32,000 nucleotides of DNA. Source: Chitinimonas arctica. Lineage in GTDB: Bacteria; Pseudomonadota; Gammaproteobacteria; Burkholderiales; Chitinimonadaceae. Both the position numbers and the translations under genes were made by a program. The notes beneath the pieces were generated by a model that had not been told where the DNA came from, ran no database searches, and worked only from the letters and a program-made list of their open reading frames with translations. The number at the start of each line of letters is the position of its first letter. Within the stretch, counting starts at the first letter, position 1. Below, one piece after another: positions 7,265 to 24,707 of this stretch. The DNA is taken from NCBI RefSeq assembly GCF_007431345.1, contig NZ_CP041730.1, positions 1,061,715-1,093,714 on the forward strand, in the 5' to 3' direction.

Positions 7265-7384
7265 TGGTTGCCGCCTACCTATACAGGTTTAGTTATCGAT
7301 CAAATTCCCCCAAACAACTTCGCCTTCAATATAGAGCAGATCAAAGAAGTATCAACCTAGCATGCTTCACTGCAGAAAATTATC

Positions 7385-8851: not shown

Positions 8852-8852
8852 T

Positions 8853-9488
8853 TTAGTTTTCCCGAACACATCGAGCCGGCGTACCCACATAGGTCCGCCC
8901 CGCTATTAAATCGTTTAACACCACCGCGCCTGCACCGACAATGCAGCCGTCTCCAATTTTTACACCGGGTAAAACATTCGCACCTGCGCCGATTAAAACC
9001 CGCTCCCCAAGCGTCACGCCGCCCGCCAAGGTAGCATTCGGTGCGATATGCGAAAAAGCGCCTATCCGGCAATCATGATCCACAACGGCGCCGTGGTTGA
9101 TAATGCAGGCAAGTCCAATATCGGCATCCGGCGCCAGGATTGCGCCGGCGGCGACAAAGGAACCTCCGCCCACTTTCGCTGAATTTGCCACAATCGCACG
9201 CGGATGGACCAGGGAATGACTTTCCATACCCGCCTCTTGGCAAAGACCATTGAGTTGGGCACGTGCTTGGTTATTCCCTATCGCGACGTGGAAACGTCCG
9301 CCTTTTGCCAATGCAAGTGCTATCGGCGCGATGATTGCCAGTCCCATTAAACGCGTGCCGGCCAGCGCAAGATTATCGTCGGCAAGCCGCAGGGAATAAC
9401 GATGCGAATCAGCCTGTAGCTTGGCTACATCCATCACCACTTTGGCATGGCCACCGCCACCCACGATCAGCAGGGAATCAGTATGCAT
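8853..9488 (-). CDS. pglD: NeuD/PglD-family sugar O/N-acetyltransferase (left-handed beta helix)
   Basis: N-terminal LLIVGGGGHAKVVMDVA and hexapeptide repeats ending VKIGDGCIVGAGAVVLNDLIAGRTYVGTPAR. Confidence 0.85.
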   Translation of the reverse strand: MHTDSLLIVGGGGHAKVVMDVAKLQADSHRYSLRLADDNLALAGTRLMGLAIIAPIALALAKGGRFHVAIGNNQARAQLNGLCQEAGMESHSLVHPRAIVANSAKVGGGSFVAAGAILAPDADIGLACIINHGAVVDHDCRIGAFSHIAPNATLAGGVTLGERVLIGAGANVLPGVKIGDGCIVGAGAVVLNDLIAGRTYVGTPARCVREN

Positions 9489-10620
9489 TCGCCTTCCTCA
9501 ATACTGCCGGGGAAATATCCAATGCAGACAGCAACTCGGCCATCCTGCCTGCAGCCCCGCCGGCATCGTAAACATTACGGGGAGCATAAGGCCCATGCGC
9601 CAGTATGCGGCCAAGCGCTGCTGTCATATCGCATTCCTGCGCATCGACATCGATCACGTTGCTATTGCGCTCCCGTAAATGCTGGCGGGCACCAATATTC
9701 ATGACCGGCGTACCAAAGCTGCCCGCCTCTATGATCCCGCTGCTGGAGTTGCCAACCATGACATCGCAGTGTGCCATCCAGGAGACAAATTCTTCGCGGG
9801 GAAGATGGGTAAAAATGCGGACATCGGCCCGATCTTCGTATTTCTCAAGAACCGACCGTATCTCGTCCCCACCCGCGTCGGAATTCGGCCGCAAGGCAAT
9901 GAGCTGTAAATTGTGTGCCAAACAGGCATCCAACAGTCCTTTTACTTCCAGGGAAGCTTGGTCGGACTGCTGTAACACCGGGTGATAGACCAGCAAGGCA
10001 ATCCCCCTGTCGCGGTCAAAGCCGACGCGATGGCACAAGCCAGACCGATCGAATGCTGCCAGGTCCGCCAGGCCATCCAACCCGGGCGCGCCGGTCAGAA
10101 AGACAGCCTCCGCTTGTTCGCCCATCCGTACCAGCCGCGCTTGCGCCTGTTCGGTCGCCACGAAATGGAAATGCGACAACTTGGAGATAGCATGCCGAAC
10201 CGGTTCATCCACGGTGCCGGAGCGCTCGCCGCCATGGATATGCACGATCGGGATATTCAGATGTATGGCTGCCAGCGCCCCAGCCAACATTTCGCCGCGA
10301 TCCCCCAGCAGCAACATCAGGTCGGGCTTGATGCGTGCCAGGGTGAGCACGCATTTATCAAGGGTATGCGCCATATTTCTCGCCATCGCGACGCCAGTGC
10401 CCGCCTCGTCCACCAAGGGTATGCGTTCTACTATCCTCAATCCCGCCTTTGAGATTTCATCCACCGTCATGCCGAATTTCGGCGACAAGTGCATACCGCA
10501 AGCAATGATATCCAACGACAAACCGGGCGAGGCGGCAATCGCCTGCAAGGCATTTTGCATCAATCCAAAATCGGCGCGGGTACCGCTTAGGTAACAGACA
10601 CGGCGAACCGTCGCCCTCAT
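9478..10620 (-). CDS. neuC: NeuC/LegG-like UDP-sugar hydrolysing 2-epimerase
   Basis: SGTRADFGLMQNAL, LLLGDRGEMLAGALAAIHLNIPIVHIHGGERSGTVDEPVRHAISKLSH and VGNSSSGIIEAGSFGTPVMNIGARQ are characteristic of NeuC. Confidence 0.88.
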   Translation of the reverse strand: MRATVRRVCYLSGTRADFGLMQNALQAIAASPGLSLDIIACGMHLSPKFGMTVDEISKAGLRIVERIPLVDEAGTGVAMARNMAHTLDKCVLTLARIKPDLMLLLGDRGEMLAGALAAIHLNIPIVHIHGGERSGTVDEPVRHAISKLSHFHFVATEQAQARLVRMGEQAEAVFLTGAPGLDGLADLAAFDRSGLCHRVGFDRDRGIALLVYHPVLQQSDQASLEVKGLLDACLAHNLQLIALRPNSDAGGDEIRSVLEKYEDRADVRIFTHLPREEFVSWMAHCDVMVGNSSSGIIEAGSFGTPVMNIGARQHLRERNSNVIDVDAQECDMTAALGRILAHGPYAPRNVYDAGGAAGRMAELLSALDISPAVLRKANAY

Positions 10621-11648
10621 ATGACATCACTCCATTGCAGGGTGACCCCCGGCTCGATATCGCGCGACGCTTTCCTGCCAATCAACGAGAGGATTTCCTT
10701 GGGGGCAATGCCATTACCTGGGCGCATCAAACCGATATCTTCCCGCGCCAGTATCTGGCCGGCCGAGACGCCACGCAGCAAGGTCACACTGCGGCGCACC
10801 AACTCCCGTACCGGCAATTCGCTATTGCTTGGTTCCTTGATTGCGGAGCCCAAGGCTTGCTCCACCTCGCGAACCCGCGAGATCAGATCCGCAAGCCCGG
10901 CAGGCTCGAGCGAAGCCGTATGATCGGGACCGGGCAATTCGCGATCGAGCGTAAAGTGCTTTTCAATCACCCTGGCCCCCATGGCCACCGCGGCAACCGA
11001 CACGGTCGATCCGTCGGTATGATCGGAATAGCCAACCGGTAAGCCGGTGGCCTGCGCAATGGTGACCATGGCGCGTAGATTTACATCAACCAGGGCAGCA
11101 GGATAATTCGAAGTACAGTGCAGAATCGTGAGCACTTCCTCCAGCGGTGCCATAAAGCCCAATGATGTCCGCACTGAACGAATGGTCCCCAGTGCCTCCA
11201 TGATCTCCGCCAAGGTCGCCATGCCGGTAGAAAGAATCAGTGGCACATTCTTTGCGGTCAGATGCGCGAGAAAGGGCAGATTGGTGATTTCCCCCGATGC
11301 GACCTTGATACGGCGCATACCCAACTCGATCAGGAAATCCGCCGCTTCCTCATCAAATGGCGTGGACATGAACTCAATACCAAGCGCCTTGCACTGCTCC
11401 ACCAGCTTTCGATGCAGCGAGTCGGACATTTCCAATTGTTTGAGCATGGCATGCTGATCGCCGTCACCCGTTTCGCGAGCCTGGTACTCTGCCTTGGCCG
11501 CCCCCTTCCGGACCAATTTATCCGCGGAAAAAGTTTGGAACTTGACGGCATCGGCGCCACAGTCGGCGGCAATTCGCACCAACTGCAAGGCTAGCGCCTC
11601 ATCGCCATTGTGATTGACACCCGCTTCGGCAATAAAAAATGTACTCAT
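10617..11648 (-). CDS. neuB: NeuB/LegI-like nonulosonic acid synthase with C-terminal SAF domain
   Basis: FFIAEAGVNHNGD, DAVKFQTF, MSTPFDEE, HCTSNYP, GYSDHT and EKHFTLDRELPGPDH. Likely start at 11648, overlapping the neuA stop; the ORF track has 11663. Confidence 0.92.
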   Translation of the reverse strand: MSTFFIAEAGVNHNGDEALALQLVRIAADCGADAVKFQTFSADKLVRKGAAKAEYQARETGDGDQHAMLKQLEMSDSLHRKLVEQCKALGIEFMSTPFDEEAADFLIELGMRRIKVASGEITNLPFLAHLTAKNVPLILSTGMATLAEIMEALGTIRSVRTSLGFMAPLEEVLTILHCTSNYPAALVDVNLRAMVTIAQATGLPVGYSDHTDGSTVSVAAVAMGARVIEKHFTLDRELPGPDHTASLEPAGLADLISRVREVEQALGSAIKEPSNSELPVRELVRRSVTLLRGVSAGQILAREDIGLMRPGNGIAPKEILSLIGRKASRDIEPGVTLQWSDVI

Positions 11649-12346
11649 TTTGTCTTCATCCAATCGTCAATCAACAATTCCGCTACACGCCAATCGAACA
11701 GGGTATCTATATCGATGTTCTCGACGGCTTCGGAACAGAGAACCGAGCGGCAGCGCTTTGGGGTGAATGTGCCTTGCTCCCGTAGCGTCCGCACCTTGGT
11801 GAGATATAGCGCGCCATTGACTGCGTATGCGGGTGGATAGTCCTGCGAACGCGTGATGCCTGTGGAGTTATCCACCCACGCCTCCAGGCAACCGCTCGTG
11901 CCCTCCCTATATGCGAGATACGGATGGGTACTGGCCATGGAAACGCCGATGACGCCGTCGCAATCTTCTTCCGCAAGTAAATCGAACGCGCTTTGCCAGC
12001 GTGTTTGAAACCGAACCGGCGTGGTAGGTTGCAACAGTGCGACCGCATCGAATTCGCGTCCGACCTTGCTCAGGTAGTCCAGCAACTCCAATACCACGTC
12101 GAGGGATGCGGTCTTGTCCTGCGCCAATTCGGCCGGCCGTAATCGACTCACGTCCAGGCCTGCATGACGTCCCACTTCGGCAATTTCCGCACTATCGGTG
12201 GAAAGCTGTATGTCGCTAAACCAGGGGATGGTTTGCGCGAACGAAATCGTCCAGGCAATCAGCGGCTTATCGAATAGCGGCCGCGTATTCTTTCCGGGCA
12301 GCCGCTTCGAGCCGCCTCGCGCAGGGATAACCGCAAGAACGCGCAT
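11645..12346 (-). CDS. neuA: NeuA/LegF-like CMP-nonulosonic acid cytidylyltransferase
   Basis: MRVLAVIPARGGSKRLPGKNTRPLFDKPLIAWTI start at 12346, with FDAVALLQPTTPVR. The ORF track's 34-residue N-terminal extension overlaps hisH. Confidence 0.9.
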   Translation of the reverse strand: MRVLAVIPARGGSKRLPGKNTRPLFDKPLIAWTISFAQTIPWFSDIQLSTDSAEIAEVGRHAGLDVSRLRPAELAQDKTASLDVVLELLDYLSKVGREFDAVALLQPTTPVRFQTRWQSAFDLLAEEDCDGVIGVSMASTHPYLAYREGTSGCLEAWVDNSTGITRSQDYPPAYAVNGALYLTKVRTLREQGTFTPKRCRSVLCSEAVENIDIDTLFDWRVAELLIDDWMKTK

Positions 12347-12993
12347 CAGATTTGGATAAAACTGCGCAATATGCTCAATCCCACCTTCCCGCTGCGCTCG
12401 GGGTGGAACTGCGTCGCCATGACATTGGCCTGCTGAACCGCCGCGCATAAGCGGTGGCCACCATACAGGGTATCGGCCAGGCGAATGGAAGGATCCGACG
12501 GCACCGCAGCGTAGGAATGCACGAAATAAACCGCCGCACGTTTGGCTTCAAGTCCTTCCAATACGCCACCGCGCCAATGCTCGCACCCTTCCGCAGGGAT
12601 CAGATAGTTCCATCCGATCTGCGGCACGCGTTGCTGAATATTCTGGGTATTCCGGCTGGGTATTCCTCGTACCCTCCCTTCGAGAATGCCCAAGCCGCGA
12701 TGCTCGCCAAACTCTTCGCTACCTTCGAACAACATTTGCATGCCAACACAAATCCCCAGAAAGGGGCGCTCAGTGGCAACAAAACGGTGGATGACTTCGT
12801 CGAAACCGCGACTTGCCAACTCCGAAATACAATCGCGGAACGCCCCCACCCCCGGTACCACCAACCTTTCCGCCGCCAGGGCCAAGGACGCATCCTCGGT
12901 AATGGTGACATCGGCCCCGCAATGCTCGAAAGCACGCGCCACGTTGAGCAAATTACCCATTCCGTAATCCAGCAAGGTGATTTTGCTACACAT
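12346..12993 (-). CDS. hisH: HisH-like glutamine amidotransferase subunit, module A
   Basis: LLDYGMGNLLNV, LGICVGMQMLF nucleophile Cys, and QFHPERSG His/Glu. Sits in a polysaccharide operon next to HisF1 and WbpG1. Confidence 0.9.
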   Translation of the reverse strand: MCSKITLLDYGMGNLLNVARAFEHCGADVTITEDASLALAAERLVVPGVGAFRDCISELASRGFDEVIHRFVATERPFLGICVGMQMLFEGSEEFGEHRGLGILEGRVRGIPSRNTQNIQQRVPQIGWNYLIPAEGCEHWRGGVLEGLEAKRAAVYFVHSYAAVPSDPSIRLADTLYGGHRLCAAVQQANVMATQFHPERSGKVGLSILRSFIQI

Positions 12994-13759
12994 CCACCAG
13001 CTCCCTTACGAAGAGACCTGCGTCCAATGCGGTTTGTCGAATAGTCATCAAGTCCATTCGATTGTAATGAAGGACATCCGCCATCGCGATGGCATCAGCC
13101 AACCCTTCGTTCGCCGCCAAGACAAAGTCTTCCGGGCTGCCCATCCCGCCACTGGCGATAACCGGCACCGACACGGCCTGGCTTATCTGGCGTATAAGCG
13201 GAATATCGAATCCCTTGCGGGTCCCTTCCCGATCAACGGAGGTCAACAAAATCTCCCCCGCACCCAATGCCACGCCTCGAACCGCCCACTCAAGTACGTC
13301 CAGGCCGGTACGCTCTCGCCCATTGTCGGTGTAGACCTCCCAGCGATCGGATGTCGTCTGCTTCGCTTCAATGGACAGCACCATGGCCTGGGAACCAAAA
13401 CGATAGGCAACCTCCGAAATCAAATCCGGCCGCGCCACGGCGGCGGTATTGATGGCCACCTTATCCGCGCCGGAACGGAGAATATGTTTCGCATCTTCAG
13501 GCGAGCGTATGCCGCCACCCACGGTAATGGGAATAAACACCCTATCAGCGGCACGACGGATGATATCGCTCAGATTGTTGCGGCCATACAAGCTGGCGAC
13601 AACATCCATGTAGACCAATTCGTCCGCACCCGCTTCGTAATATTTAAGCGCGTACTCCTGCGGATCGCCGATCACGCGCAATCCTTCGAGATGCACCCCT
13701 TTAATCAAGTTCGGTCCCTTGATATCCAGGCGAGGAATGATGCGAACGTTTCTCATCAT
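12986..13759 (-). CDS. hisF: HisF-like subunit, module A (acetamidino-modification type)
   Basis: HisF barrel sequence VRIIPRLDIKGPNLIKGVHLEGLR, TVGGGIRS, VIASGGMGS. The residue equivalent to T. maritima D11 is present (D12); the D130 equivalent is Glu (E131). Confidence 0.88.
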   Translation of the reverse strand: MMRNVRIIPRLDIKGPNLIKGVHLEGLRVIGDPQEYALKYYEAGADELVYMDVVASLYGRNNLSDIIRRAADRVFIPITVGGGIRSPEDAKHILRSGADKVAINTAAVARPDLISEVAYRFGSQAMVLSIEAKQTTSDRWEVYTDNGRERTGLDVLEWAVRGVALGAGEILLTSVDREGTRKGFDIPLIRQISQAVSVPVIASGGMGSPEDFVLAANEGLADAIAMADVLHYNRMDLMTIRQTALDAGLFVRELVDV

Positions 13760-14937
13760 TTTTCTTTGTCGGTTAAATGGTTCTCATGCCAGGCAGCATG
13801 CCGGAGGATCCACTCATCCCCCTCTTTTTTCCATAGATGATCGGAACGCCAGCTGTCAATCACCTCCTCGAATTGTTCCTGCCCGATTGAGCAATACTCC
13901 AGAAACTCCTGCAAATGACGCTTTGGAAATTCGCCGTCGTAGCGTCTTACCAACGCCACCGCTTCCTCGCGGGTTATCTTACCGTCGCGCACTTCATGCG
14001 CCGCATCCGACGTCGTACGACCGATACCGAACTTGATATACCCCAGGTAATAATGAAAGCCGTCGATCCGATCATCCAGGCTGGCATATTTCGAATAGGT
14101 CCCTTCCGAACGCTCCGTATTCGGCGAAAAACCGGTGTGCTCACGGCAATAATAGTAATTTTCCTGGGGGTCCCAAAATTTGTAATAGCCCAGAAAATGG
14201 ATTTCGGTCTTGTTATTCTTTATTTCATCGAACTTTGGCGCCATAAATGGCTTCAAATCCGACAAGGTCAGACCATGCTCCAGCCAGAACTCCGGCGGCA
14301 ATCCAGAAAAATAATGCGTATCGTGATCCTGAATTTCCCTATCCGGACGATGCGCATTCTTCATATCGCCGCCATACTCGACCTCGCCGTTCTCCCCATA
14401 CATGATCAGTGACACATTATGCTTGATGGCCATGCTAAGCGGAAAGTTGGTCTGCCCATAGATAAATGGCTGAAATGGATCGCCAAGATGGGCGAAGGAG
14501 AGTTGCGTCAACTTCCTGGTCACCACGCCATTAGGCGTGCCGAGCACATTATCAAAGCCGGCGCGAATAAAAGCGTCCAGGTTACGGCGACCGATTTCAG
14601 TTGCCCATAGTGGCGCCCATGTCACCGTCAATGGATTCATGCCATATTTGTATTTAAGCTGATGGGCGACAAAACTACCATCCTTCCCTCCGCTGCAAGG
14701 AACGATTACGTCATATTCCCCATTGCCTTTACGGTGTTTGTCGCACAATGCAAGCAATTCCCGTTCTCGCTCCGTCCAATCGATTTTATTGCGCTTGTAC
14801 TCTGCAAAATTGCAAGCCGAGCAAACACCCTTTTCATCGAAAGTGATCCGGGGACGTTGATTCGAAATCGTACATTTCCTGCAGTAACGAACTTCGCTCG
14901 GAAGCTTGTACTTGGCAATCACGTCAACTTTCTGCAC
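13756..14937 (-). CDS. wbpG: N-acetyl sugar amidotransferase, WbpG/PseA/PtmG-like, module A
   Basis: Cys pairs CRKC...CSAC, PP-loop PCSGGKDGSF, and GENGEVEYGGDMKNA. Adjacent to hisF/hisH homologs. Confidence 0.82.
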   Translation of the reverse strand: MQKVDVIAKYKLPSEVRYCRKCTISNQRPRITFDEKGVCSACNFAEYKRNKIDWTERERELLALCDKHRKGNGEYDVIVPCSGGKDGSFVAHQLKYKYGMNPLTVTWAPLWATEIGRRNLDAFIRAGFDNVLGTPNGVVTRKLTQLSFAHLGDPFQPFIYGQTNFPLSMAIKHNVSLIMYGENGEVEYGGDMKNAHRPDREIQDHDTHYFSGLPPEFWLEHGLTLSDLKPFMAPKFDEIKNNKTEIHFLGYYKFWDPQENYYYCREHTGFSPNTERSEGTYSKYASLDDRIDGFHYYLGYIKFGIGRTTSDAAHEVRDGKITREEAVALVRRYDGEFPKRHLQEFLEYCSIGQEQFEEVIDSWRSDHLWKKEGDEWILRHAAWHENHLTDKEK

Positions 14938-14954
14938 AAAGCGCTCCTATAGGC

Positions 14955-15518
14955 CTAATGAGAAACGCCATCGCGTTTCATGACTTTGATAAAAGTACGC
15001 CACAATACCAACAAATCGAACACCAGCGACCTTCTATGTAGGTACTCGGTATCCAATTTGACCTTTTCTGGTATGGACAGCTCATCCCTTCCATTGATCT
15101 GAGCCCAGCCCGTGAGCCCGGGAATAAGCGTATGCACTCCCTCCCTGGTACGTAGTTCTATCAAATCATACTGATTATAAAGCGCCGGTCGCGGTCCAAC
15201 GAAGCTCATATCGCCCCGCAGTATGCACCAAAGTTGCGGCAATTCATCCAAACTGCTTTTGCGCAAAAAACCTCCTATAGGCGTGAGATAAGCCCCAGGA
15301 TCCTCCATAAGATGCGTAGCCACGACAGGCGCATCCTGCCGCATGCTACGGAATTTTGGCATTTTGAAAATAGTATTATTATGCCCCACCCTGTCCGACC
15401 AATAAACCAGCGGGCCTTTAGAGGTCAGTTTTATCGCGATCGCCACCAATATTGCCGGCGCAAATAAAATTATCGCGGCAACGATGGACAACAATATATC
15501 AATGGTTCTTTTTATCAA
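14955..15518 (-). CDS. Initiating sugar-1-phosphate transferase (PglC/WcaJ C-terminal type)
   Basis: MIKRTIDILLSIVAAIILF, KFRSMR, RKSSLDELPQLWCILRGDMSFVGPRP and PGLTGWAQINGRDELS are hallmark motifs. Confidence 0.92.
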   Translation of the reverse strand: MIKRTIDILLSIVAAIILFAPAILVAIAIKLTSKGPLVYWSDRVGHNNTIFKMPKFRSMRQDAPVVATHLMEDPGAYLTPIGGFLRKSSLDELPQLWCILRGDMSFVGPRPALYNQYDLIELRTREGVHTLIPGLTGWAQINGRDELSIPEKVKLDTEYLHRRSLVFDLLVLWRTFIKVMKRDGVSH

Positions 15519-16678
15519 TTATTTGCACCCGCCAATATCAATTTCGCAGCACCTTCCGCATAAGCTTCCCGCGTGTGCATGACCCGAACGCCACGGCATG
15601 CCTCCTGCATAGCCGAATATAAATCAGCATCATCTTTCAGCCGTAAAATTGCGCTGTATATCTGCTCTACATCCCCAGCATTGTACTGCGCGCCGCAGCG
15701 ACTTAATTCCAAAAACTCTCCCGCATCGCACGGCGGTGTCACGATAGTCGGTATGGCCAATCCCAGGTATTCCCAGACCTTTACCGGAAAGGCATCCTTG
15801 GAAATGTCCTCGTCCAGTCGCAAGCACAAGCCAACATGACACTTCGATACTTCCTGAATCGTCTCTTCAAAAGATTTCCTGCCTAGATACCTTAGATTTT
15901 CGTTTTGGTTATCTTCCAGTAAGTTTGACTTCCGACCATACCCGACCACCACCACATCGATATCATGCATAGCCAATCGATCAGCTAAAATCACGATGGA
16001 CTCAACATCCTGAAAAAACCCCAGCACACCGTGAAAGCACACGGTAAATCTAGCATGTTTTTCCGACTGCACATTCAACAGCAAGGACGGAAACCCATTC
16101 GCAATATGGACAACCGATGGTTTGCCCGGATATTTTTCCACTTCATTCTTCAAGCCAGCCGTTGCTGTAAAGATCAAAGCGGCTCGCTTATACATATAGG
16201 CACTGAATTTATCCAAGATACGATGCAACACACCATCCTTGGCGATTAAATTGCTTGCTACATATGCTTGAGGGTAGATATCCCTGATATCCAATATAAA
16301 TGGCATCCTACGTAACATCGCCGCTAGGCATATAATGCAAGCAGCAATGTACGATGGCGATGAAACCAATAAAGTCGTAGATTTAGGATTCGCTCTAAAT
16401 ACCTGCCGCCCCACACGAATGCCTAAAACCCCTTCCCGCCATACTCTGCGCAACAATCCCCCTTCTTCCGACCCCGTCCCGCTTGGTAGCGATTTGATTT
16501 CGACTCCGTCAATTGGATGAGGATCGGGCGTTGCGGTGTAAAAACGCAAATCCACGGGTGTTGCACCTCTGAATTTCACCAATGCTTCGGCGATCGAGTG
16601 GCCACGCAGGGCTGCACCACCACCTCCCGAAGGTGGTAAGCTCTCAAAGAAACAAGCGATACGTTTATTCTGATTCAT
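15515..16678 (-). CDS. GT4-like glycosyltransferase (WbuB-like)
   Basis: Two-domain GT-B pattern: GGAALRGHSIAEAL, LDIRDIYPQAYVASNLI, VCFHGVLGFFQDVE, FPVKVWEYLGLAIPTIVTP. Confidence 0.8.
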   Translation of the reverse strand: MNQNKRIACFFESLPPSGGGGAALRGHSIAEALVKFRGATPVDLRFYTATPDPHPIDGVEIKSLPSGTGSEEGGLLRRVWREGVLGIRVGRQVFRANPKSTTLLVSSPSYIAACIICLAAMLRRMPFILDIRDIYPQAYVASNLIAKDGVLHRILDKFSAYMYKRAALIFTATAGLKNEVEKYPGKPSVVHIANGFPSLLLNVQSEKHARFTVCFHGVLGFFQDVESIVILADRLAMHDIDVVVVGYGRKSNLLEDNQNENLRYLGRKSFEETIQEVSKCHVGLCLRLDEDISKDAFPVKVWEYLGLAIPTIVTPPCDAGEFLELSRCGAQYNAGDVEQIYSAILRLKDDADLYSAMQEACRGVRVMHTREAYAEGAAKLILAGANN

Positions 16679-17967
16679 TATGCCGCCTTTTTGACATAGA
16701 CAAATCCGCGCTTCGACATACCGGGCTGCAGAATAAAGTAAGTCACCCCCATCGATATCAGCATCAGCGGGTGGACCAACTGCACAATGCCTGCGCTATT
16801 CAACCAGCTCAACAATACAAAAACAAAATAAGTTATCGTCATAGCTCCCAAATCATAGCGCCGCTTGGCGACGGATTTTTTTATATAGTCAAGCACCACG
16901 GCAACGAAATATCCGGCAATCAACCCAAAAACAATGAAGCCATATAAACCAAAAAACAACAATCCTTCCACAAAAATATTTGGCGTCATGTTCCATTCGC
17001 CAGAGCTTACCGCCGAGACCATATCTGGATACTGAGCAGCCGAAACCGCCATCGAAAACCCATACTGATACACTTCGTCCATTCCAACAAACAGTTTTAT
17101 ATTACTTTTGCCAAAAATCTCCATCAGAGTAGGCAAATAGCTAAACTGCATCTCATCATCTATCAACTGCAACGGGACCGCATACGGCAATTCCGCAGTC
17201 AAGATAAAAGCACGATACAATATATACAAAACAGCGTCAAACAAATCACCTTCCAGGAAGGAATCGAACATTAGCCCTGCCACCACCACAAGACAAAATG
17301 ATATCAACACCAGTCTCAAAAAAGCCCAAAAATTCATGCGGTCCCAATATAGGGCGATTACCCCAGGCAATACGATCTGAATCGCGGAAGCTTTTCCACC
17401 CGTCGCGGCTCCAATCAACAGGACTGAAACGATACTGAATATGACAGCATTTCTTGATTCCTTATTCGGGTGAAATCGGTGCCATAAGCATACGTATGCC
17501 AATAAGGAAGGCGATAAATACTTCGTAAAAAATGCGTGGAATGGACCCATTTGCCGCACATGCTCTTTTGTCACTTCCCCGCCCAACACCCATAACCCTT
17601 GAAATGGCACCATAACAATCAACAAAATCACAAATATGGCAAACGTCACATATCGCAGATTCGGGCTATAGGCGGCAACGTCAAGCTTCGTCCCTTCTGT
17701 TATCGGCTTTCTTTGCCGAATAAAAAAAGCAGAAAAGAATGCCACCAGGAAAACCGTATATAGCATGAAAGGAATAAGCGAATAATTCCCATTCACCAAC
17801 CACTCATACTCTTCCTGTAAAAAATACAGCAGTACAATGCCTGTATAAGGCAGCATTAACACCAGCAGAACGAGTACAATTAGCATTTGCAGAGCCCGGT
17901 GCGATAAACCATCAGTTATATTGCACTTTTCGATATATTTTAACCAGTGCCATTGCAATCTTCGCAT
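16678..17967 (-). CDS. wzy: Multi-pass membrane protein, probable Wzy-like O-antigen/polysaccharide polymerase
   Basis: About 12 hydrophobic segments, AT-rich, located between glycosyltransferase and amidotransferase genes. The start may instead be 17886 (MLIVLVLLV...), which would remove the 56-nt overlap with the next gene. Confidence 0.6.
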   Translation of the reverse strand: MRRLQWHWLKYIEKCNITDGLSHRALQMLIVLVLLVLMLPYTGIVLLYFLQEEYEWLVNGNYSLIPFMLYTVFLVAFFSAFFIRQRKPITEGTKLDVAAYSPNLRYVTFAIFVILLIVMVPFQGLWVLGGEVTKEHVRQMGPFHAFFTKYLSPSLLAYVCLWHRFHPNKESRNAVIFSIVSVLLIGAATGGKASAIQIVLPGVIALYWDRMNFWAFLRLVLISFCLVVVAGLMFDSFLEGDLFDAVLYILYRAFILTAELPYAVPLQLIDDEMQFSYLPTLMEIFGKSNIKLFVGMDEVYQYGFSMAVSAAQYPDMVSAVSSGEWNMTPNIFVEGLLFFGLYGFIVFGLIAGYFVAVVLDYIKKSVAKRRYDLGAMTITYFVFVLLSWLNSAGIVQLVHPLMLISMGVTYFILQPGMSKRGFVYVKKAA

Positions 17968-19015
17968 AGGAAGGATAGTCGAAGTGACTAACCGCCGATG
18001 CGTTCAAATAAGCATCGTGCTCCACCTGCGAAAACCCCAGCTTCTTGCAGATATACTCCCGATCCGATGCCAGCGCAGATTCGGTATAAGGTGGCTTTTC
18101 CAGCTCCTTCAATGCAAGTTCGCGCGTCACTTCCCCATTCATAATGAGGTCAGACAAGTGCACCTTGCGCTTATCCACGCCAAATTTCTTGGGGAGGATA
18201 TGAGCCTGGTAGTATTTTGTAAATAAAGATTCGTAATGCTTACCGCCATAATATTCCCAGCCCAGCTCCGCTTTCAATGTAGCGATGGCTTCTTCTTTCT
18301 TATAAGGGAGATAATTCAATATCGGCACGGATTGAAAACCAGACATATACTTGTTCCAAGCCATATGCCAAATACTGATGGTAGGATAGCTACGCACTTT
18401 CAATTGGCCAAATTTCTTTTGAATAGCCATCAAGTTAAGTAAATCAAACTTGAAATGCTGCCATGCTTTCGGCATAATCGACTCGGTGGCCACGTTTGTG
18501 CCCGACAGGATATATCGAATTTTATGCTGCTTGGCCAGTTTGAAGAGCGCAGCAAAGATAGCGTGATCGGTAACCATCTCGATATCGATAACATTTGCTT
18601 TAAAGAAAGATCGCTGGATATCGCGAAACTCCTCCCAATCGATGACATAGGTAATCAAGTCCAAATTTAACTTCTTCACCATCCTTTCGATATTCTTCAC
18701 CGCCAACTCGGAGTTCCAGCCATTATCGAAATGTACCGCAAGGGGTTTCAACCCCAACTGGATGGCTTGATAGGCTACATAGGAGCTATCTACTCCACCG
18801 CTCAGGCCAATAATGCAATCATATTCGCCCTTCGCACGCGCCTTTATCCGAGCGACCAAGGCAGCCAACTTCTCACCCGCATCAGACTGACTGAAAGGAG
18901 CTTGTGCAACACGCGCTTCGTGTGACTTGCAATGACTGCACACACCGGACTCATCGAATGAGATCTCCGCATCGGTCGTATCCATCACACAACGAACACA
19001 TATTTGATAGTGCAC
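17912..19015 (-). CDS. wbpG: N-acetyl sugar amidotransferase, WbpG/WbuX-like, module B
   Basis: Cys pairs CVRC...CSHC, PP-loop IGLSGGVDSSY, and GTNVATESIMP. Directly followed by HisF2/HisH2 homologs. Confidence 0.85.
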   Translation of the reverse strand: MHYQICVRCVMDTTDAEISFDESGVCSHCKSHEARVAQAPFSQSDAGEKLAALVARIKARAKGEYDCIIGLSGGVDSSYVAYQAIQLGLKPLAVHFDNGWNSELAVKNIERMVKKLNLDLITYVIDWEEFRDIQRSFFKANVIDIEMVTDHAIFAALFKLAKQHKIRYILSGTNVATESIMPKAWQHFKFDLLNLMAIQKKFGQLKVRSYPTISIWHMAWNKYMSGFQSVPILNYLPYKKEEAIATLKAELGWEYYGGKHYESLFTKYYQAHILPKKFGVDKRKVHLSDLIMNGEVTRELALKELEKPPYTESALASDREYICKKLGFSQVEHDAYLNASAVSHFDYPSYAKIAMALVKIYRKVQYN

Positions 19016-19043
19016 CGTACGCTCTCCTTCGCGTCTACCGCGC

Positions 19044-19805
19044 TTATAAAAATGCCTGTTTCAGGGCATCTGCTTCCGGGTAGGTAATCAGGACGCCTCT
19101 ATGCTTGCCATGGAAAACAAACATTGCGCCGGCAGCCACCGCCGAAGCACCGCCACAGTGGGTTGCTTCTCGAAAGTCTCCGATTTTGCCGGCCCCACCG
19201 GACGCAATAACCGGGATGGGTACTGCACGCGCGATCTGCTTGATCAATTCAAGATCGTAGCCTTCCATCGTTCCGTCACGATCAATCGCAGTCAAAAAAA
19301 TCTCACCGGCTCCCAGCTTGGAAACCGTCAAGGCGAACGCCACAGGATCCAGCCCTGTCGACTTCGTTCCCCTGGCACGATAGACCTCATATTTTCCAAA
19401 TAGCTTTCGTTTGACATCCATCGAAACCACGATTGATTGGGAGCCAAACTCGGCCGCTGCGGCACTGATTAATTCCGGATGCTGAAAGGCTGCCTCGTTC
19501 AAAACGACTTTCTCAATTCCCAATTTCAGTATCTTCCGTATCTGCTCTAAATTTGTTATGCCGCCTCCATATGCAACAGGCATAAAACATTCATTGGCAA
19601 TTTCTTCGATAACCTCGAAGTTCGGCCCTTTCCCTTCCACCGAAGCAAGTACATCCAAAAGAACCAACTCGTCCACTTCCTTGTCATTAAATATCTTTAT
19701 CGCATTGATAGGATCGCCGATATATTGTGGATCCTTAAACCTTGTTGTCTTCACAAGGCCTCTTCCCTTTAATAGCAAGCAAGGAATCACGCGGATACGT
19801 AACAT
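19044..19805 (-). CDS. AglZ/HisF2/WbuZ-like acetamidino-modification protein, module B
   Basis: RVIPCLLLKGRGLVKTTRFKDPQYIGDPINAIKIFNDKEVDELVLLDV. CLLLK replaces canonical CLDVK, while SMDVK keeps the D130 equivalent. Confidence 0.9.
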   Translation of the reverse strand: MLRIRVIPCLLLKGRGLVKTTRFKDPQYIGDPINAIKIFNDKEVDELVLLDVLASVEGKGPNFEVIEEIANECFMPVAYGGGITNLEQIRKILKLGIEKVVLNEAAFQHPELISAAAAEFGSQSIVVSMDVKRKLFGKYEVYRARGTKSTGLDPVAFALTVSKLGAGEIFLTAIDRDGTMEGYDLELIKQIARAVPIPVIASGGAGKIGDFREATHCGGASAVAAGAMFVFHGKHRGVLITYPEADALKQAFL

Positions 19806-19807
19806 AC

Positions 19808-20434
19808 TTAATACTCGCTTACAAAGTTGCTTAGTAATTGCATACCAAACCTGTGGCTCTTTTCCGGATGAAATTGCACTCCCATTATATTCCCCACTTC
19901 GAAGGCGGCATCGAATTCGTGGCCATGTTCCGATTTGAGCAAACTATCACCCGTCGCATGACATTTAACATAGTAGGAATGCACGAAATAGAATCTCGCC
20001 TCCTCATCCGCCGCCTTCATCAATCTTGATTCCTTGCAGGGCTTTACTCTGTTCCAGCCCATATGGGGTACTTTGAGCGTGCTATCCTCGGGGAGGGTGA
20101 AACGTATCGTGTCTGCTTGAACCCAGCCTAATCCCCGCAGCTTCCCTTCTTCGCTACCTTGCGTCATTAAATGCATGCCGAGGCAAATTCCCAGAACGGG
20201 GACTTTCTTTTCCAATACCAATTCATTCAATAGCGAGGACAACCCGGATTGTTCCAAACTCGACATCCCCGCATCAAATGCACCAACGCCTGGTAGTATC
20301 AATTTTCCGGCTTGCCGCAGGCAGGCGGGATCGGCCGATATTTCACTTTCCGCCCCCACCTTCTTCAGCATATTCCGAATGGAGCCAAGATTGCCCATTC
20401 CGTAATCAACAATAGTAATCATTGGCTTACTCAT
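19808..20434 (-). CDS. hisH: HisH-like glutamine amidotransferase subunit, module B
   Basis: MSKPMITIVDYGMGNLGSI start (20434), LGICLGMHLM, GVQFHPEKSH. The ORF track start at 20509 is probably a 25-codon over-extension. Confidence 0.9.
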   Translation of the reverse strand: MSKPMITIVDYGMGNLGSIRNMLKKVGAESEISADPACLRQAGKLILPGVGAFDAGMSSLEQSGLSSLLNELVLEKKVPVLGICLGMHLMTQGSEEGKLRGLGWVQADTIRFTLPEDSTLKVPHMGWNRVKPCKESRLMKAADEEARFYFVHSYYVKCHATGDSLLKSEHGHEFDAAFEVGNIMGVQFHPEKSHRFGMQLLSNFVSEY

Positions 20435-21884
20435 GGTGTTTTCTTGCCCGATCGACGAAATCGAGATAATTGGCGCGCCAATTCGGCGCCCAAATAGCAT
20501 CAGTTTCAATCGAATCCGACGGTTTTTCGCATTCCTGCGACATCATATCCACAAGGGTTTCGATGCAATCGAATCCAAAAAAAGGATGCTTTGGCAATGA
20601 AAACCGCGAAACCGCCGTTTCCCACACGAATATCTTTTCGACAATGCCTACTGCTTCAAAAAGCACAGTCGACAGTTCGGAGACGATTGCATTCACACTG
20701 CTCAAAGAGCGATAGAGGTCGCTATGCGTATCGATTTGCACGCCAGCAACCAACCCGGACGCCATTCTCATGTTGATGGCCGCACGCTCCAGTGGGTGGG
20801 GACGAAAACTGATCGTCCATACATCGCTAAGTTTTTCGGTCAACTCTCTAGCCAAAGCCAGATATTTTTCAGTCTGCACGCCATCGCCGATAACCAAAAG
20901 CGCTTTGGCTCCTTTTTTTTCCACAGGTTGGTTGACTGCCAGTCGTTCGCTACGGTATGGATTTCCAATTACCAGCTTGGTCACCGGGAGATTAATTTGA
21001 TCATTCCACCAACTTCCGTAGGCAAGAAAATAGTTCGGTAGTGTCCGACGCAACAAAGTACTGTTCCGAAGCGTTTCCGCATAATTATATGCATCATGCC
21101 CGGCAGAAATAAATCCATGCTGATATTCCGCGGTCACCATACCCAAGCTGTGCGCAGCGGCATTCACCACCGCAGACTGGCCATAGCAGCCTTCTTCTTT
21201 TAAAAGTAGCTTAGCCCCACACTTTTTGAGCATCTTCATATAGGAGGCATGTAAGTTCGGCAAGGCCGCAATTTTTGTGGCCAGGATATTTTCCAGCAGA
21301 CTGGCTTGACTATCTTCAAGATCAAAATCAATGAATTGTTTGGATCTTTGCCGTGCCAGATCAATAAGCTCGGCAGCAATTTTCCGATGTCGGCTTCGAA
21401 CCAGAAGATGCCCTAAAACAATGCCCTTGGCTTGCAAAGGTGCTTGCCAAAGTACGTTTTTAAACTCGCGCGGATATTTCCACTCCCAACCAAACTGCCC
21501 TTCAATCACAACCGTTTGCTCCGGCAAGGCCATCGCAAAATGATCACTCAGACGATTGAACCACCGGCCTTGCTGCCTGGCGGAACCTACCGCCGTCGCC
21601 ATGATGCAGATATCGCCCTTTGTCGATTCAGACTTGCGCAGATTATGCATAGCCGAGCGAGCCAAGGTGCTGAAAGCGCCGGCTTTCAATCCCTGTATAT
21701 TGCTCGAACGATACAAGGGGTATCGATAAAGTTGGGACGACATGATCGTACGGATAAACATCAGCCTAATAATTGGCCATAGCAATATATCCGTCTCCCG
21801 GCATTGAAAACTCAAATACTCCGGAGTGTCTTCAATCTGCAGAATGCTTTGCAGTGTAAGGTCTTGCCCTGGTTTCATTTTCAT
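20427..21884 (-). CDS. Putative GT-B-like surface carbohydrate biosynthesis protein; candidate nonulosonic acid transferase
   Basis: Soluble protein of about 485 aa. C-terminal half has a Rossmann-like segment ALLVIGDGVQT, an HP-type motif SFRPHPLE and VSELSTVLFEAV. Likely start at 21884 overlaps the upstream flippase stop. Confidence 0.5.
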   Translation of the reverse strand: MKMKPGQDLTLQSILQIEDTPEYLSFQCRETDILLWPIIRLMFIRTIMSSQLYRYPLYRSSNIQGLKAGAFSTLARSAMHNLRKSESTKGDICIMATAVGSARQQGRWFNRLSDHFAMALPEQTVVIEGQFGWEWKYPREFKNVLWQAPLQAKGIVLGHLLVRSRHRKIAAELIDLARQRSKQFIDFDLEDSQASLLENILATKIAALPNLHASYMKMLKKCGAKLLLKEEGCYGQSAVVNAAAHSLGMVTAEYQHGFISAGHDAYNYAETLRNSTLLRRTLPNYFLAYGSWWNDQINLPVTKLVIGNPYRSERLAVNQPVEKKGAKALLVIGDGVQTEKYLALARELTEKLSDVWTISFRPHPLERAAINMRMASGLVAGVQIDTHSDLYRSLSSVNAIVSELSTVLFEAVGIVEKIFVWETAVSRFSLPKHPFFGFDCIETLVDMMSQECEKPSDSIETDAIWAPNWRANYLDFVDRARKHHE

Positions 21885-23146
21885 GCCGCCCTCGCCGCTT
21901 CCATCCATGGCATTCCGCGCGACCGCTGCGCCAACCACCAGGTACAGATAAATATCGCAAGCTGCGAGAGCATAAAGGCTTGTGCTGCTCCGACTATCCC
22001 ATTCACCTTCAAGAGATAAAAGTTCGCCATAATGTTAAACATACCGGCCGCACACGTAATAATCGCCAATCCTGCGGTTTTTCCCGCGAAAAAAACATAA
22101 TTCGTCACCATCAGATACATACCGCTGAACGCGAAGCCCAGCGTGATGTAAACCACCGAACTCGCCGCGGATTGGTATTCCGCGCCGACCAGCCAACTTA
22201 ATAATATGGGTGCAATCGCACCAATCAATAATGCAGCAACTACTACAATAATAAAGTACAGATAGGTAAATCGAACTATTTGGCGGTCTCTTTCCGCATC
22301 CTGGCTTTTCAGCGATTCCAATAGCCATGGGGCGAATGCACGATTGAAAGAGTCAATCAACAATCCCAGCACCATGCCAACCTGCATGGCAACCATGTAG
22401 ATCCCCGCGCTTGCCACACCGAGCATATTGCTGATCATCACCCGATCAACCATCACAATCAGCATTCCGCCTATTACATGCGGAATCAAGGGCACACCAA
22501 ATCGCATTGCATCCAGGGCATAGGTTCTATTGTATGGAAACTTTATCCAAGCTCCGTGCCTAAGACAAAATAAAGCAACCAACATCAGTAGCACACTTGC
22601 CATCGAAATACCGATCAACCTTCCCTCCCAGGTCAATCCCAACGCAAATATAAGCACGAGAGAAAATGCAGCATCCATTGCCGTCTGGGCAAACTTCATC
22701 GCACCATAGCGTATTGGTTTACGTGCCGCTTGCCATAGCGCCAGCTGTGTCTGTACTACAAACTGCGCGCCAGACACCAATACGGCAATTAATATCCACA
22801 GTCTCGGGATTTTCGCGAAATCCTCCAAGATCGGCATTAAAACCATGACCGCTATCAGTACCACCGTGGTACTGATCAACAATATCACCAAACAGCTGGC
22901 GACATAGGTTGGCAGGTTGAAATTTTCCTGCTCAAAATAGCGCACCCCTATCGCCCCATGAACGCTTAAACCTGTAAAGGCCCCCAATGCCGTTACCGTC
23001 AGCGTAAACATGGTGACGATCCCATACTCTTCCGGTGTCAGCACGCGCGTGAGTATGGGTAGTAATAGAAAAGGAAGTCCGGCACTCAGCGCGTTCGCCA
23101 GTGCATAGATCAACGCAGAACCGAATAGTCCTTTTCTGCCCGTCAT
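21881..23146 (-). CDS. wzx: Polysaccharide flippase, Wzx/MOP family
   Basis: 421 aa, about 12 TM, with SALIYALANALSAGLPFLLLPILTRVLTPEEYG typical of Wzx/RfbX proteins. Confidence 0.88.
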   Translation of the reverse strand: MTGRKGLFGSALIYALANALSAGLPFLLLPILTRVLTPEEYGIVTMFTLTVTALGAFTGLSVHGAIGVRYFEQENFNLPTYVASCLVILLISTTVVLIAVMVLMPILEDFAKIPRLWILIAVLVSGAQFVVQTQLALWQAARKPIRYGAMKFAQTAMDAAFSLVLIFALGLTWEGRLIGISMASVLLMLVALFCLRHGAWIKFPYNRTYALDAMRFGVPLIPHVIGGMLIVMVDRVMISNMLGVASAGIYMVAMQVGMVLGLLIDSFNRAFAPWLLESLKSQDAERDRQIVRFTYLYFIIVVVAALLIGAIAPILLSWLVGAEYQSAASSVVYITLGFAFSGMYLMVTNYVFFAGKTAGLAIITCAAGMFNIMANFYLLKVNGIVGAAQAFMLSQLAIFICTWWLAQRSRGMPWMEAARAA

Positions 23147-24243: not shown

Positions 24244-24707
24244 GCCAGGTTCCTGATTTTACGAGCCGGGTTTCCCGCATAGACGCCAGGCTCATTGATA
24301 TCACGCGTTACCACGGCTCCCGCCCCGATGACCACACCATCGCAAATCTTTACAGGAAGAATCGTGGCATTGCTACCGATGGATACATAGTTCCCGACAT
24401 GCGTGGGTCGCCAGCATGTCTTGTCACCACGGGCCGGCCCGCCCTTGATGAATGGGTCGTTAATGAACATGACGCCGTGGCCTATAAAGCAATCCGTGCC
24501 TACCGTTACCAGTTCGCAGATAAATGCATGAGACTGCACACGTGTACGCGCACCAATACCGACACCTTTTTGTATTTCTACAAAAGGGCCGACAAATACG
24601 TTGTCCGCCAATGTACAGCCATACAGATTCGCCGGTTCAACCACCGTCACGTCTTCACCAAACTGCACATTGGTGATGGCAACCTGCCTGATATTCGGGC
24701 TGCTCAT
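24240..24707 (-). CDS. Hexapeptide-repeat N-acetyltransferase, WbpD-like
   Basis: LbH repeats (VFVGPFVEIQKGVGIG, HAFICELVTVGTDCFIGHGVMFIND, VVIGAGAVVTRDINEPGVYAGNPARKI). Start MSSPNIR at 24707 overlaps the preceding stop. Confidence 0.85.
   Translation of the reverse strand: MSSPNIRQVAITNVQFGEDVTVVEPANLYGCTLADNVFVGPFVEIQKGVGIGARTRVQSHAFICELVTVGTDCFIGHGVMFINDPFIKGGPARGDKTCWRPTHVGNYVSIGSNATILPVKICDGVVIGAGAVVTRDINEPGVYAGNPARKIRNLA

Follow-up and report, generated by a model that had tools for sequence, protein, structure and literature searches.

The N-acetyl sugar amidotransferase (NASAT) of Legionella pneumophila, LpNASAT, has a PP-loop and a Zn site and is described as turning an N-acetyl into an acetamidino group as ATP yields AMP and PPi (PMC10607449). 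A polysaccharide locus of Chitinimonas arctica encodes two such proteins, WbpG1 and WbpG2, each with HisH- and HisF-like partners (modules A and B). WbpG1 is homologous over its full length to LpNASAT (crystal structure 8WEX), which comes from an organism with a poly-Leg5Am7Ac O-antigen, and the Zn tetracysteine and the PP-loop domain are common to both; however, a Legionella-specific insertion of ~15 residues is missing from WbpG1, and its PP-loop reads SGGKDG instead of SGGKDS. Unlike LpNASAT, WbpG1 is encoded alongside a second module in a Wzx/Wzy locus for a heteropolymer. PseA and PtmG of Campylobacter jejuni, which amidinate Pse and Leg, also belong to the NASAT family, PtmG being cited as the source of the acetimidoylamino form; their likeness to WbpG1 is at the family level.

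Module B resembles the HisH2-HisF2-WbpG set of Pseudomonas aeruginosa O5 (ManNAc3NAmA) in its H-F-G order followed by a GT4 gene, in its linkage to wbpB/D/E and in the NF038364 score of HisF2, on which three features the comparison rests, but the window, by which we mean the whole 32,000-nucleotide stretch analysed, is without wbpA and wbpI. Methanococcus maripaludis, an archaeon, has a NASAT/HisH/HisF trio as well (AglX/AglY/AglZ), which acts in N-glycosylation and places the acetamidino group on the N-glycan sugar ManNAc3NAmA6Thr; we liken it to module B by its make-up and because HisF2 passes the model named after AglZ. In E. coli O145, WbuX/WbuY/WbuZ are assigned to L-FucNAm, the function of WbuX having been deduced from genetics only. 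Both NASATs pass the WbuX model (TIGR03573) and HisF2 the WbuZ model (TIGR03572), yet there is no L-FucNAc pathway in the window, and a blastn search against E. coli genomes gave no match.

The partner proteins have the same folds as HisH and HisF of imidazole glycerol phosphate synthase, with the HisH triad intact and the DEL, GxxKV and GAGEI segments conserved; R5, E46, K99 and E167 are presumably the gate residues in HisF. In contrast to that enzyme, each barrel has lost one cyclase aspartate: HisF2, aligned to 4EVZ, carries D11L and retains the D130 equivalent, and HisF1 carries D130E and retains the D11 equivalent. Moreover, the HisF-like genes lie in a glycan operon rather than a his operon, and HisF1 scores slightly below the cut-offs of TIGR00735 (284.5 versus 294.55) and TIGR03572 (280 versus 300).

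Organization of the locus

The locus occupies 24 kb (5282–29583); its 22 genes are all encoded on the minus strand, and most of them overlap their neighbours or are separated by very short gaps. At its head are a Wza-type exporter (27124–29583) and a Wzz/GNVR co-polymerase (25913–27127), followed by a WbpB/WlbA-like 3-dehydrogenase (24707–25765), a WbpD-like acetyltransferase (24240–24728, matching PDB 3mqg and QdtC), a WbpE-like aminotransferase (23143–24243), a Wzx flippase (21881–23146; PF01943, PF13440) and a 485-residue protein, Unk503 (20427–21884). Module B comprises HisH2 (19808–20434), HisF2 (19044–19805) and WbpG2 (17912–19015), and module A comprises WbpG1 (13756–14937), HisF1 (12986–13759) and HisH1 (12346–12993). 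Between them are a Wzy-like polymerase (16678–17967), a GT4 glycosyltransferase (15515–16678) and a small PglC-type phosphoglycosyl transferase, PGT187 (14955–15518). Downstream of module A, NCBIfam and Pfam models identify a legionaminic-acid pathway (5282–12346): CMP-NulO synthetase (11645–12346), NeuB (10617–11663), hydrolysing NeuC (9478–10620), a PglD-like N-acetyltransferase (8853–9488), a CBS-LegC aminotransferase (7385–8890) and a WbpM/PglF-like 4,6-dehydratase (5282–7264). The locus has three candidate transferases (PGT187, GT4 and Unk503) for three sugar pathways.

Every part of the two modules is a member of a known family. Both NASATs exceed the TIGR03573 cut-off of 203 (364 bits for WbpG1 and 296 bits for WbpG2) and are already annotated by NCBI, in entries 100% identical to them, as 'N-acetyl sugar amidotransferase [Chitinimonas arctica]'. 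Both glutaminases are of class I and pass TIGR01855, HisH1 (GICVGMQ ... FHPE) with 197 bits and HisH2 (GICLGMH ... FHPE) with 229 bits. The HisH triads, the Zn tetracysteines (C19/C22/C39/C42 in WbpG1 and C6/C9/C26/C29 in WbpG2) and the PP-loops are all present, and none of the six ORFs contains a frameshift or stop codon. These data bear out the preliminary description, made from the sequence, of two complete modules transcribed as G-F-H (A) and H-F-G (B), with PP-loops that it quoted correctly as PCSGGKDGSF (WbpG1) and IGLSGGVDSS (WbpG2).

Sugar targets of the two modules

Translational coupling links module A to a full set of legionaminic-acid genes, with start and stop codons overlapping through WbpG1, HisF1, HisH1, NeuA, NeuB and NeuC (by 4 nt between WbpG1 and HisF1 and by 8 nt between HisF1 and HisH1). 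The match of WbpG1 to 8WEX runs to 47% identity over 411 columns (E 3e-110). A WbpG1-type gene was examined in 80 species-level genomes: genes of the HisF1 and HisH1 types adjoin it, with HisF1 downstream, in 69, NeuB is no more than 10 kb away in 67, and NeuB is accompanied by NeuC in 61. The legionaminic-acid cassette is also present in loci L006, L024, L027, L041, L069 and L089. The 8WEX match and the proximity of NeuB uphold the earlier assignment of module A to a legionaminic-type sugar, and its product would very likely be Leg5Am7Ac.

Module B can be assigned, by its family scores and gene order, to the Pseudomonas O5/archaeal AglXYZ type. HisF2 exceeds both the AglZ/HisF2 equivalog NF038364 (372 versus 310), which HisF1 fails with 195, and TIGR03572 (305 versus 300). 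WbpG2 has the canonical PP-loop SGGVDS, conserved as SGGVDSS in 119/120 of its relatives, and matches 8WEX at the N-terminus only (E 1.6e-6). The cassette around it, WbpB-WbpD-WbpE-Wzx-GT-B protein-HisH-HisF-NASAT-GT4, recurs in Brucella sp. IR073 (L081) and, with WbpA, in a Herminiimonas MAG (L164). The WbpB, WbpD and WbpE homologues are predicted to form a pathway to a 2-acetamido-3-acetamido-2,3-dideoxy sugar. The closest PDB matches of WbpB are 3q2k (E 4e-92) and 3q2i (E 3e-86), which we take to be WlbA of Bordetella/Chromobacterium, and that search returned no match labelled as the P. aeruginosa enzyme. Profile searches of the locus ORFs detected neither wbpA nor wbpI; the diamino sugar could therefore be gluco or manno, uronic or not, and UDP-ManNAc3NAcA, suggested earlier as the test substrate for module B, is a doubtful choice for the same reason.

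Our best guess for the target of module B is this 2,3-diacetamido sugar, as the preliminary description had proposed. That proposal is favoured by the enrichment of WbpG2-type genes beside WbpB (7/9 versus 3/71, Fisher p 1.3e-6) and by contiguous HisH-HisF-WbpG-WbpB-WbpD-WbpE operons in L102, L111, L116 and L145; in L081, WbpB/D/E form the sole dedicated sugar pathway adjoining the module, and P. aeruginosa O5 carries its amidino group on ManNAc3NAmA itself. It is weakened by the scarcity of WbpB on long contigs anchored by WbpG2 (7 of 36), and by L082 and L085, whose WbpG2 relatives are 60–66% identical and where WbpB/D/E were not found in the sequence available. It is possible, at odds well short of even, that module B amidinates another sugar and the WbpB/D/E product stays diacetylated; the target would then be a 2-N-acetyl (or 4-N-acetyl) group on the initiating or a neighbouring residue, e.g. 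diNAcBac or a sugar of the QuiNAc/FucNAc/HexNAc type. Such repeat units have precedent, since in the glycans of V. vulnificus YJ016, P. rubra and P. shigelloides O51, GlcNAc3N(acyl)A is paired with L-GalNAmA or L-FucNAm and the amidino group sits on that adjacent GalNAcA/FucNAc sugar (PMC3210612), and L164 has FnlABC-like genes beside the module-B cassette. Yet N3 carries a malyl or 3-hydroxybutyryl group rather than acetyl in these published examples (PMC3210612), and genes for making L-FucNAc or L-GalNAcA are lacking from the window.

Unk503 has no Pfam or NCBIfam match and no known domain, and its 302 homologues are annotated as 'hypothetical'. Its AF2 model (pLDDT 91.7) gave GT-B proteins as Foldseek matches, and in the loci examined the gene always adjoins HisH/HisF/NASAT genes of the module-B type, making it a candidate glycosyltransferase (or epimerase) of the cassette. 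Since some of its homologues lie in loci devoid of NulO genes, Unk503 need not be a Leg transferase.

A proposed polysaccharide with two acetamidino groups

We infer from gene content, protein families, motifs, synteny and pairing that the locus may produce one Wzx/Wzy-dependent surface polysaccharide with two acetamidino groups per repeat unit, introduced by two separate complexes, A on Leg5Ac7Ac and B on the 2,3-diacetamido sugar; we give this reading of chemistry, substrates and shared polymer a probability of roughly 55%. In each complex the HisH-like glutaminase would free ammonia from glutamine, and the HisF-like barrel, with one of its two cyclase aspartates lost, would serve as glutaminase activator and ammonia conduit. 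The Zn-containing PP-loop ATP pyrophosphatase (NASAT) would then use ATP to activate the N-acetyl carbonyl, whose oxygen would be replaced by NH, to give a positively charged acetamidino (amidinium) group. Module A, which precedes the complete UDP-diNAcBac-based legionaminic acid pathway in the operon, would convert Leg5Ac7Ac, probably as the CMP-sugar, to Leg5Am7Ac as in Legionella pneumophila, and module B would most likely act on the N-acetyl group at N3 of the 2,3-diacetamido-2,3-dideoxy sugar that the WbpB/WbpD/WbpE homologues are predicted to supply.

That two cassettes have merged here and serve two glycoconjugates, so that no single glycan carries both groups, is improbable. In that reading the upper half, which runs from Wza to GT4 and includes module B, would make the polymer; the lower half, from PGT187 to WbpM and including module A, would supply CMP-Leg5Am7Ac to another acceptor. 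The halves do occur alone, the upper in L081 and L164 and the lower in L006, L024, L027, L041 and L069; GC content steps from 44–49% to 55–57% near 13.8 kb, and the Unk503 homologues in NulO-free loci point the same way. Against this, the 22 closely joined genes share one strand, Wzx and Wzy are each encoded once, and neither a further set of transferases nor a gene for flagellin glycosylation is present. Furthermore, the combined architecture is seen again in L002, L003, L007, L021, L072, L078, L089 and L091. The arrangement is thus not rare, and the view of the preliminary description that a glycan with two such groups from one locus would be unusual is not supported: both complete modules occur together in eight other sampled loci, and multi-NASAT loci are common.

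That one module is redundant or inactive, leaving one amidino group or none, is very improbable. The non-canonical WbpG1 PP-loop (SGGKDG versus SGGxDS) and the HisF1 scores under the curated HisF and WbuZ cut-offs might point that way, but SGGKDG[S/G] is kept in 119/120 WbpG1 relatives, clade members at least 72% identical and spread across phyla, all catalytic motifs are there in uninterrupted reading frames, and both modules retain clade-typical order and partners.

Divergence and cognate pairing of the modules

A recent tandem duplication inside the locus, which three shared protein families on one strand with 3 kb between the modules might suggest, is refuted by pairwise identities of 32–43% and the NASAT clade bit scores (between-clade median 59 bits versus at least 452 bits within clades), and thousands of sequences elsewhere are closer to each module than the modules are to one another. 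WbpG1 and WbpG2 are 32% identical over 110 N-terminal residues only, their C-terminal two thirds being unalignable; HisF1 and HisF2 share 43% and HisH1 and HisH2 35% identity, with E-values far beyond chance. The gene orders also differ, each being typical of its clade (G-F-H in 60/69 for the WbpG1 type and H-F-G in 40/48 for the WbpG2 type). Because the modules are so divergent and each keeps its clade's order, they did not arise by tandem duplication. Together with module-specific HisF/HisH types and a difference in GC content (56–57% in HisF1/HisH1, 46–49% in module B), this agrees with the earlier proposal of independent systems.

The matching of HisF/HisH type to NASAT type is a new point. 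The type of the nearest NASAT is matched by that of HisF in 135 of 136 cases and by that of HisH in 124 of 125. NASATs of different clades never have a HisF/HisH pair in common, whereas same-clade paralogues do share one; two pairs are found in the eight cross-clade loci and never in same-clade multi-NASAT loci. This pattern suggests that each NASAT forms an obligate cognate complex with its own HisF/HisH, and two glutaminase/barrel pairs would be needed if the NASATs of a clade function exclusively with the HisF/HisH type that co-evolved with them.

Gene content and the two amidotransferase modules

The chromosomal locus consists of 22 genes arranged head to tail on the minus strand (window 29583 to 5282), with start and stop codons that mostly overlap or lie a few bases apart. 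In the direction of transcription they encode Wza, Wzz, WbpB-, WbpD- and WbpE-like proteins, Wzx, the 485-residue protein Unk503, HisH2, HisF2 and WbpG2, followed by Wzy, a GT4 glycosyltransferase, a small PglC-type phosphoglycosyl transferase, WbpG1, HisF1 and HisH1, and then a CMP-nonulosonate synthetase, NeuB, a hydrolysing NeuC, a PglD-like acetyltransferase, a CBS-LegC aminotransferase and a WbpM/PglF-like dehydratase. All components of a Wzx/Wzy-dependent polysaccharide locus are present, i.e. flippase (Wzx, PF01943), polymerase (Wzy, TIGR04370, marginal at 40.5 against a cut-off of 40), initiating phosphoglycosyl transferase (PF02397), co-polymerase (Wzz/GNVR) and exporter (Poly_export/SLBB). 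The G+C content falls from 60–62% in the flanks to 43–49% at about 14–23 kb of the window (14000–23000); the legionaminic acid genes have 55–57%, and WbpG1, at 49%, lies below its partners HisF1 and HisH1 (56–57%). Such a pattern is typical of glycan loci put together as mosaics by horizontal transfer. A promoter and terminator scan gave counts equal to those of shuffled sequence and is thus uninformative on operon structure, and a tRNA scan of the window found none. Public annotation already names each gene correctly, and in other respects the locus is an ordinary set of known gene families from an environmental bacterium. Our literature search found no paper on the glycans of C. arctica, a member of the Neisseriales in the Betaproteobacteria.

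Both WbpG proteins, 100% identical in sequence to NCBI entries for C. arctica, belong to the N-acetyl sugar amidotransferase (NASAT) family, scoring 364 (WbpG1) and 296 bits (WbpG2) against a cut-off of 203.2 for TIGR03573 (WbuX/NASAT). The structure paper on the Legionella pneumophila enzyme, LpNASAT, defines the family by a zinc-binding tetracysteine motif together with a PP-loop (PMC10607449). The tetracysteine motif, CxxC...[GN]xCxxC, is found in both proteins (CRKC...GVCSAC in WbpG1, CVRC...GVCSHC in WbpG2). The PP-loop, SGGxDS, reads SGGVDS in WbpG2, SGGKDG followed by S in WbpG1, and SGGKDS in LpNASAT. Family membership predicts that both would convert an N-acetyl to an acetamidino group. 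The WbpG1 clade (WbpG1 at 13756–14937, minus strand; 120 members, P0001–P0120) is unusually conserved, with at least 72% identity across Leptospira, Proteobacteria, Paenibacillaceae, Acidobacteriota and Bdellovibrionota; its non-canonical loop, SGGKDG followed by S or G, is found in 119 of the 120. The L. pneumophila enzyme, in contrast, is a 47% outlier to this clade with the canonical loop.

The preliminary description had given coordinates, gene orders and PP-loops of both modules correctly, and its view that they are two separate systems is borne out. WbpG1 and WbpG2 can be aligned only over 110 N-terminal residues, at 32% identity, while HisF1 and HisF2 share 43% and HisH1 and HisH2 35%. 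Scored against one another, 120 relatives per NASAT give 452 bits or more within a clade and a median of 59 bits between clades, which excludes a recent tandem duplication. A blastn search with module B found no match in any complete E. coli genome.

Both HisH proteins keep the Cys-His-Glu triad, with GIC(V/L)GM and FHPE segments, and score 197 and 229 bits against a cut-off of 105 for TIGR01855; since both pass this model, annotation pipelines can be expected to give them histidine-biosynthesis labels. HisF2 exceeds the equivalog cut-off of NF038364, the AglZ/HisF2 acetamidino modification protein (372.1 versus 310), a model that takes its name from archaeal AglZ and P. aeruginosa HisF2. HisF1 falls under NF038364 (195.2 versus 310), WbuZ (280 versus 300) and HisF (284.5 versus 294.55), and represents a separate HisF-like clade linked to nonulosonic acid (NulO) genes. 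Neither has the hallmarks of the housekeeping cyclase of IGP synthase: each has lost a different catalytic aspartate (T. maritima HisF numbering), D11 being replaced by L in HisF2 and D130 by E in HisF1, and both genes lie within the glycan operon, outside any his-operon context. The DEL, GxxKV and GAGEI segments, which house the ammonia-gate residues of T. maritima HisF, are retained in both. The simplest reading of these sequences is that the barrels would no longer cyclise, and would instead activate the glutaminase and conduct ammonia to one particular NASAT.

Pairing of amidotransferases with HisF and HisH partners

The comparison took in 162 related loci, chosen and classed by their similarity to proteins of the window. 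In 135 of 136 cases the HisF-like protein is of the same type as the NASAT nearest to it, and for HisH this holds in 124 of 125. Where a locus joins both NASAT clades it carries two HisH/HisF pairs; where it has several NASATs of one clade it never does, and 8 of 11 such loci have exactly one. This clade-matched pairing is the one new regularity. The mirrored order of the two modules is simply two canonical orders side by side. Among the 80 best WbpG1-type loci, taken from a scan of one genome per species that recovered the close WbpG1 clade only, HisF1- and HisH1-type genes adjoin the NASAT in 69, with the order NASAT–HisF–HisH in 60 of these; the order HisH–HisF–NASAT is found in 40 of 48 WbpG2-type loci.

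The most far-reaching reading, to which we give a probability of roughly 0.35, is that NASATs would form obligate, clade-specific complexes, each working only with the HisH glutaminase that co-evolved with it and with a HisF barrel that has become an ammonia conduit; that the repeat unit would bear two amidinium groups, on legionaminic acid as Leg5Am7Ac and on an amidinated 2,3-diamino sugar, which would make the polymer densely zwitterionic; and that Unk503 would act on the amidinated sugar as its own transferase or as the epimerase otherwise missing. If the complexes are indeed obligate and clade specific, this would explain why a cross-clade locus carries two full sets. Acetamidino groups turn acidic sugars into zwitterions and alter the recognition of surface glycans by antibodies, phages and immune receptors, and to our knowledge no study has established how ammonia gets to the amidotransferase. 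The locus studied here and some ten relatives offer a natural experiment, with two NASAT clades and their own glutaminase/barrel pairs in one operon. Partner swaps between the modules would directly test specific ammonia-channelling HisF–NASAT complexes; for the study of how sugar amidination may channel ammonia between cognate partners, the locus is a useful natural test system.

It is common for a locus to hold two or three NASATs of a single clade. Tandem same-clade paralogues with a single HisH/HisF pair occur in L110, which has three NASATs (6235–11095), and in the loci L037 and L064 (10001–12500), and may yield sugars with amidino groups at several positions or on several residues. In six Lachnospiraceae/Roseburia NulO clusters with WbpG1-type NASATs (L059, L065, L070, L073, L075 and L076), no HisH- or HisF-like gene was found within 10 kb; these enzymes may draw on free ammonia or a distant glutaminase.

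Probable sugar targets and recurrence of the two-module layout

WbpG1 matches the LpNASAT crystal structure (PDB 8WEX; sequence rebuilt from the HMMER alignment) over its whole length at 47% identity (E 3e-110); WbpG2 matches only the N-terminal 80 residues of that structure. L. pneumophila polymerises Leg5Am7Ac. NeuB is encoded in 67 of the 80 WbpG1-type loci, and NeuB together with NeuC in 61. Enzymes for all steps from UDP-diNAcBac to legionaminic acid and of the route to UDP-diNAcBac itself are encoded in the window, as judged by gene content, which reads Leg, 4eLeg and 8eLeg alike: a WbpM-like dehydratase, a LegC-family aminotransferase (378 bits, cut-off 420), NeuD/PglB family (207 versus 161), NeuC (389 versus 236), NeuB (424 versus 400) and CTP_transf_3. 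The full-length structural match, the NeuB/NeuC neighbourhood and the complete pathway therefore assign module A to a legionaminic-type sugar, as first suggested, and it very probably forms Leg5Am7Ac; N5 as the position and a CMP-sugar as the substrate form would follow by analogy. The LegC-family aminotransferase (window 7385–8890, minus strand; 501 residues) bears an N-terminal CBS domain, and this long form, 54–65% identical, also occurs in the legionaminic cassettes of six compared loci (L001, L006, L024, L027, L041 and L069).

For module B, the proposed 2,3-diamino sugar is somewhat favoured. Within the WbpG1-anchored set, a WbpB homologue accompanies a WbpG2-type gene in 7 of 9 loci versus 3 of 71 (Fisher p 1.3e-6), and contiguous HisH-HisF-WbpG-WbpB-WbpD-WbpE operons occur in four metagenomic contigs. 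A WbpB-D-E-Wzx-Unk-HisH-HisF-NASAT-GT4 block is found without legionaminic genes in Brucella sp. IR073 (L081), and with WbpA in front in a Herminiimonas MAG (L164). Against this, WbpB is present in only 7 of 36 long WbpG2-anchored contigs, and WbpB, WbpD and WbpE are missing near two WbpG2 relatives (60–66% identical) within the sequence compared. That another sugar of the repeat is the target is the less probable alternative. A review of marine O-antigens describes repeat units in which GlcNAc3N(acyl)A stands beside L-GalNAmA or L-FucNAm, the amidino group thus sitting on the neighbour sugar (PMC3210612).

The test substrate UDP-ManNAc3NAcA named in the preliminary description is too narrow. 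Of the WbpA/B/E/D/I pathway to this sugar, the locus encodes only WbpB-, WbpD- and WbpE-like proteins, and a search of the locus for UDPG_MGDP_dh and a non-hydrolysing Epimerase_2 (wbpA, wbpI) found neither, which also weakens the case for the diamino sugar as target; gluco and non-uronic forms are also candidates. WbpB resembles the 3q2k/3q2i dehydrogenases (E 4e-92), WlbA enzymes acting on UDP-GlcNAcA. In two metagenome contigs, L102 and L111, the HisH-HisF-WbpG-WbpB-WbpD-WbpE operon is compact and has neither a UDP-GlcNAc 6-dehydrogenase nor a 2-epimerase gene in its vicinity (neither wbpA nor wbpI was found in them), a hint of a non-uronic, GlcNAc3NAc-type amidinated sugar.

The arrangement had been called unusual, but both complete modules occur in eight further loci (L002, L003, L007, L021, L072, L078, L089 and L091), from Roseateles asaccharophilus, two Methylibium MAGs, a Noviherbaspirillum MAG, a Steroidobacteraceae MAG, a Burkholderiales MAG and two metagenomic contigs. 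Two more candidates run past the end of their sequence, and a further locus, L165, is likely to have two HisH/HisF pairs. The two-module layout thus recurs as a minority architecture and is not unique; overall, the preliminary observation is confirmed and its interpretation supported in part. Phrase searches of the literature for glycans with two acetamidino groups returned nothing relevant; Salmonella arizonae O61 may combine 8eLeg5Am7Ac with FucNAm, which we do not count as evidence.

Because each half of the locus occurs alone elsewhere, it could represent two fused cassettes, each serving a different glycoconjugate, but this is improbable in view of the one Wzx and one Wzy, the close packing of the genes and the recurrence of the combined layout. 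That one module is inactive is very improbable, given that the SGGKDG loop of WbpG1 is kept in 119 of 120 clade members, at least 72% identical, from several phyla.

Unk503 and the adjoining genes

Unk503 (FNU76_04820, 'hypothetical protein'; window 20427–21884, minus strand), for which the most far-reaching reading proposes a role as transferase or epimerase, has no Pfam or NCBIfam match, and its 302 homologues are all unnamed. The confident AlphaFold model (pLDDT 91.7) predicts a GT-B fold, and the structures nearest to it, each at a low TM-score, comprise glycosyltransferases, a polysialyltransferase and UDP-sugar 2-epimerases. EEG is part of the alignment consensus, in which R-P-H-P and S-T vary little or not at all. 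The homologues without exception adjoin module-B-type HisH/HisF/NASAT genes (L016, L021, L081, L117, L143 and L163–L165), with NulO genes present or absent at these loci. Unk503 flags an unannotated GT-B family tied to module-B-type genes.

Directly adjoining the polysaccharide locus are a 934-residue fusion protein that joins a YjbH exopolysaccharide-biosynthesis domain to a PAP2 phosphatase domain at the C terminus (window 1730–4534, plus strand) and, after it, a secreted MORN-repeat protein (window 4531–5217).
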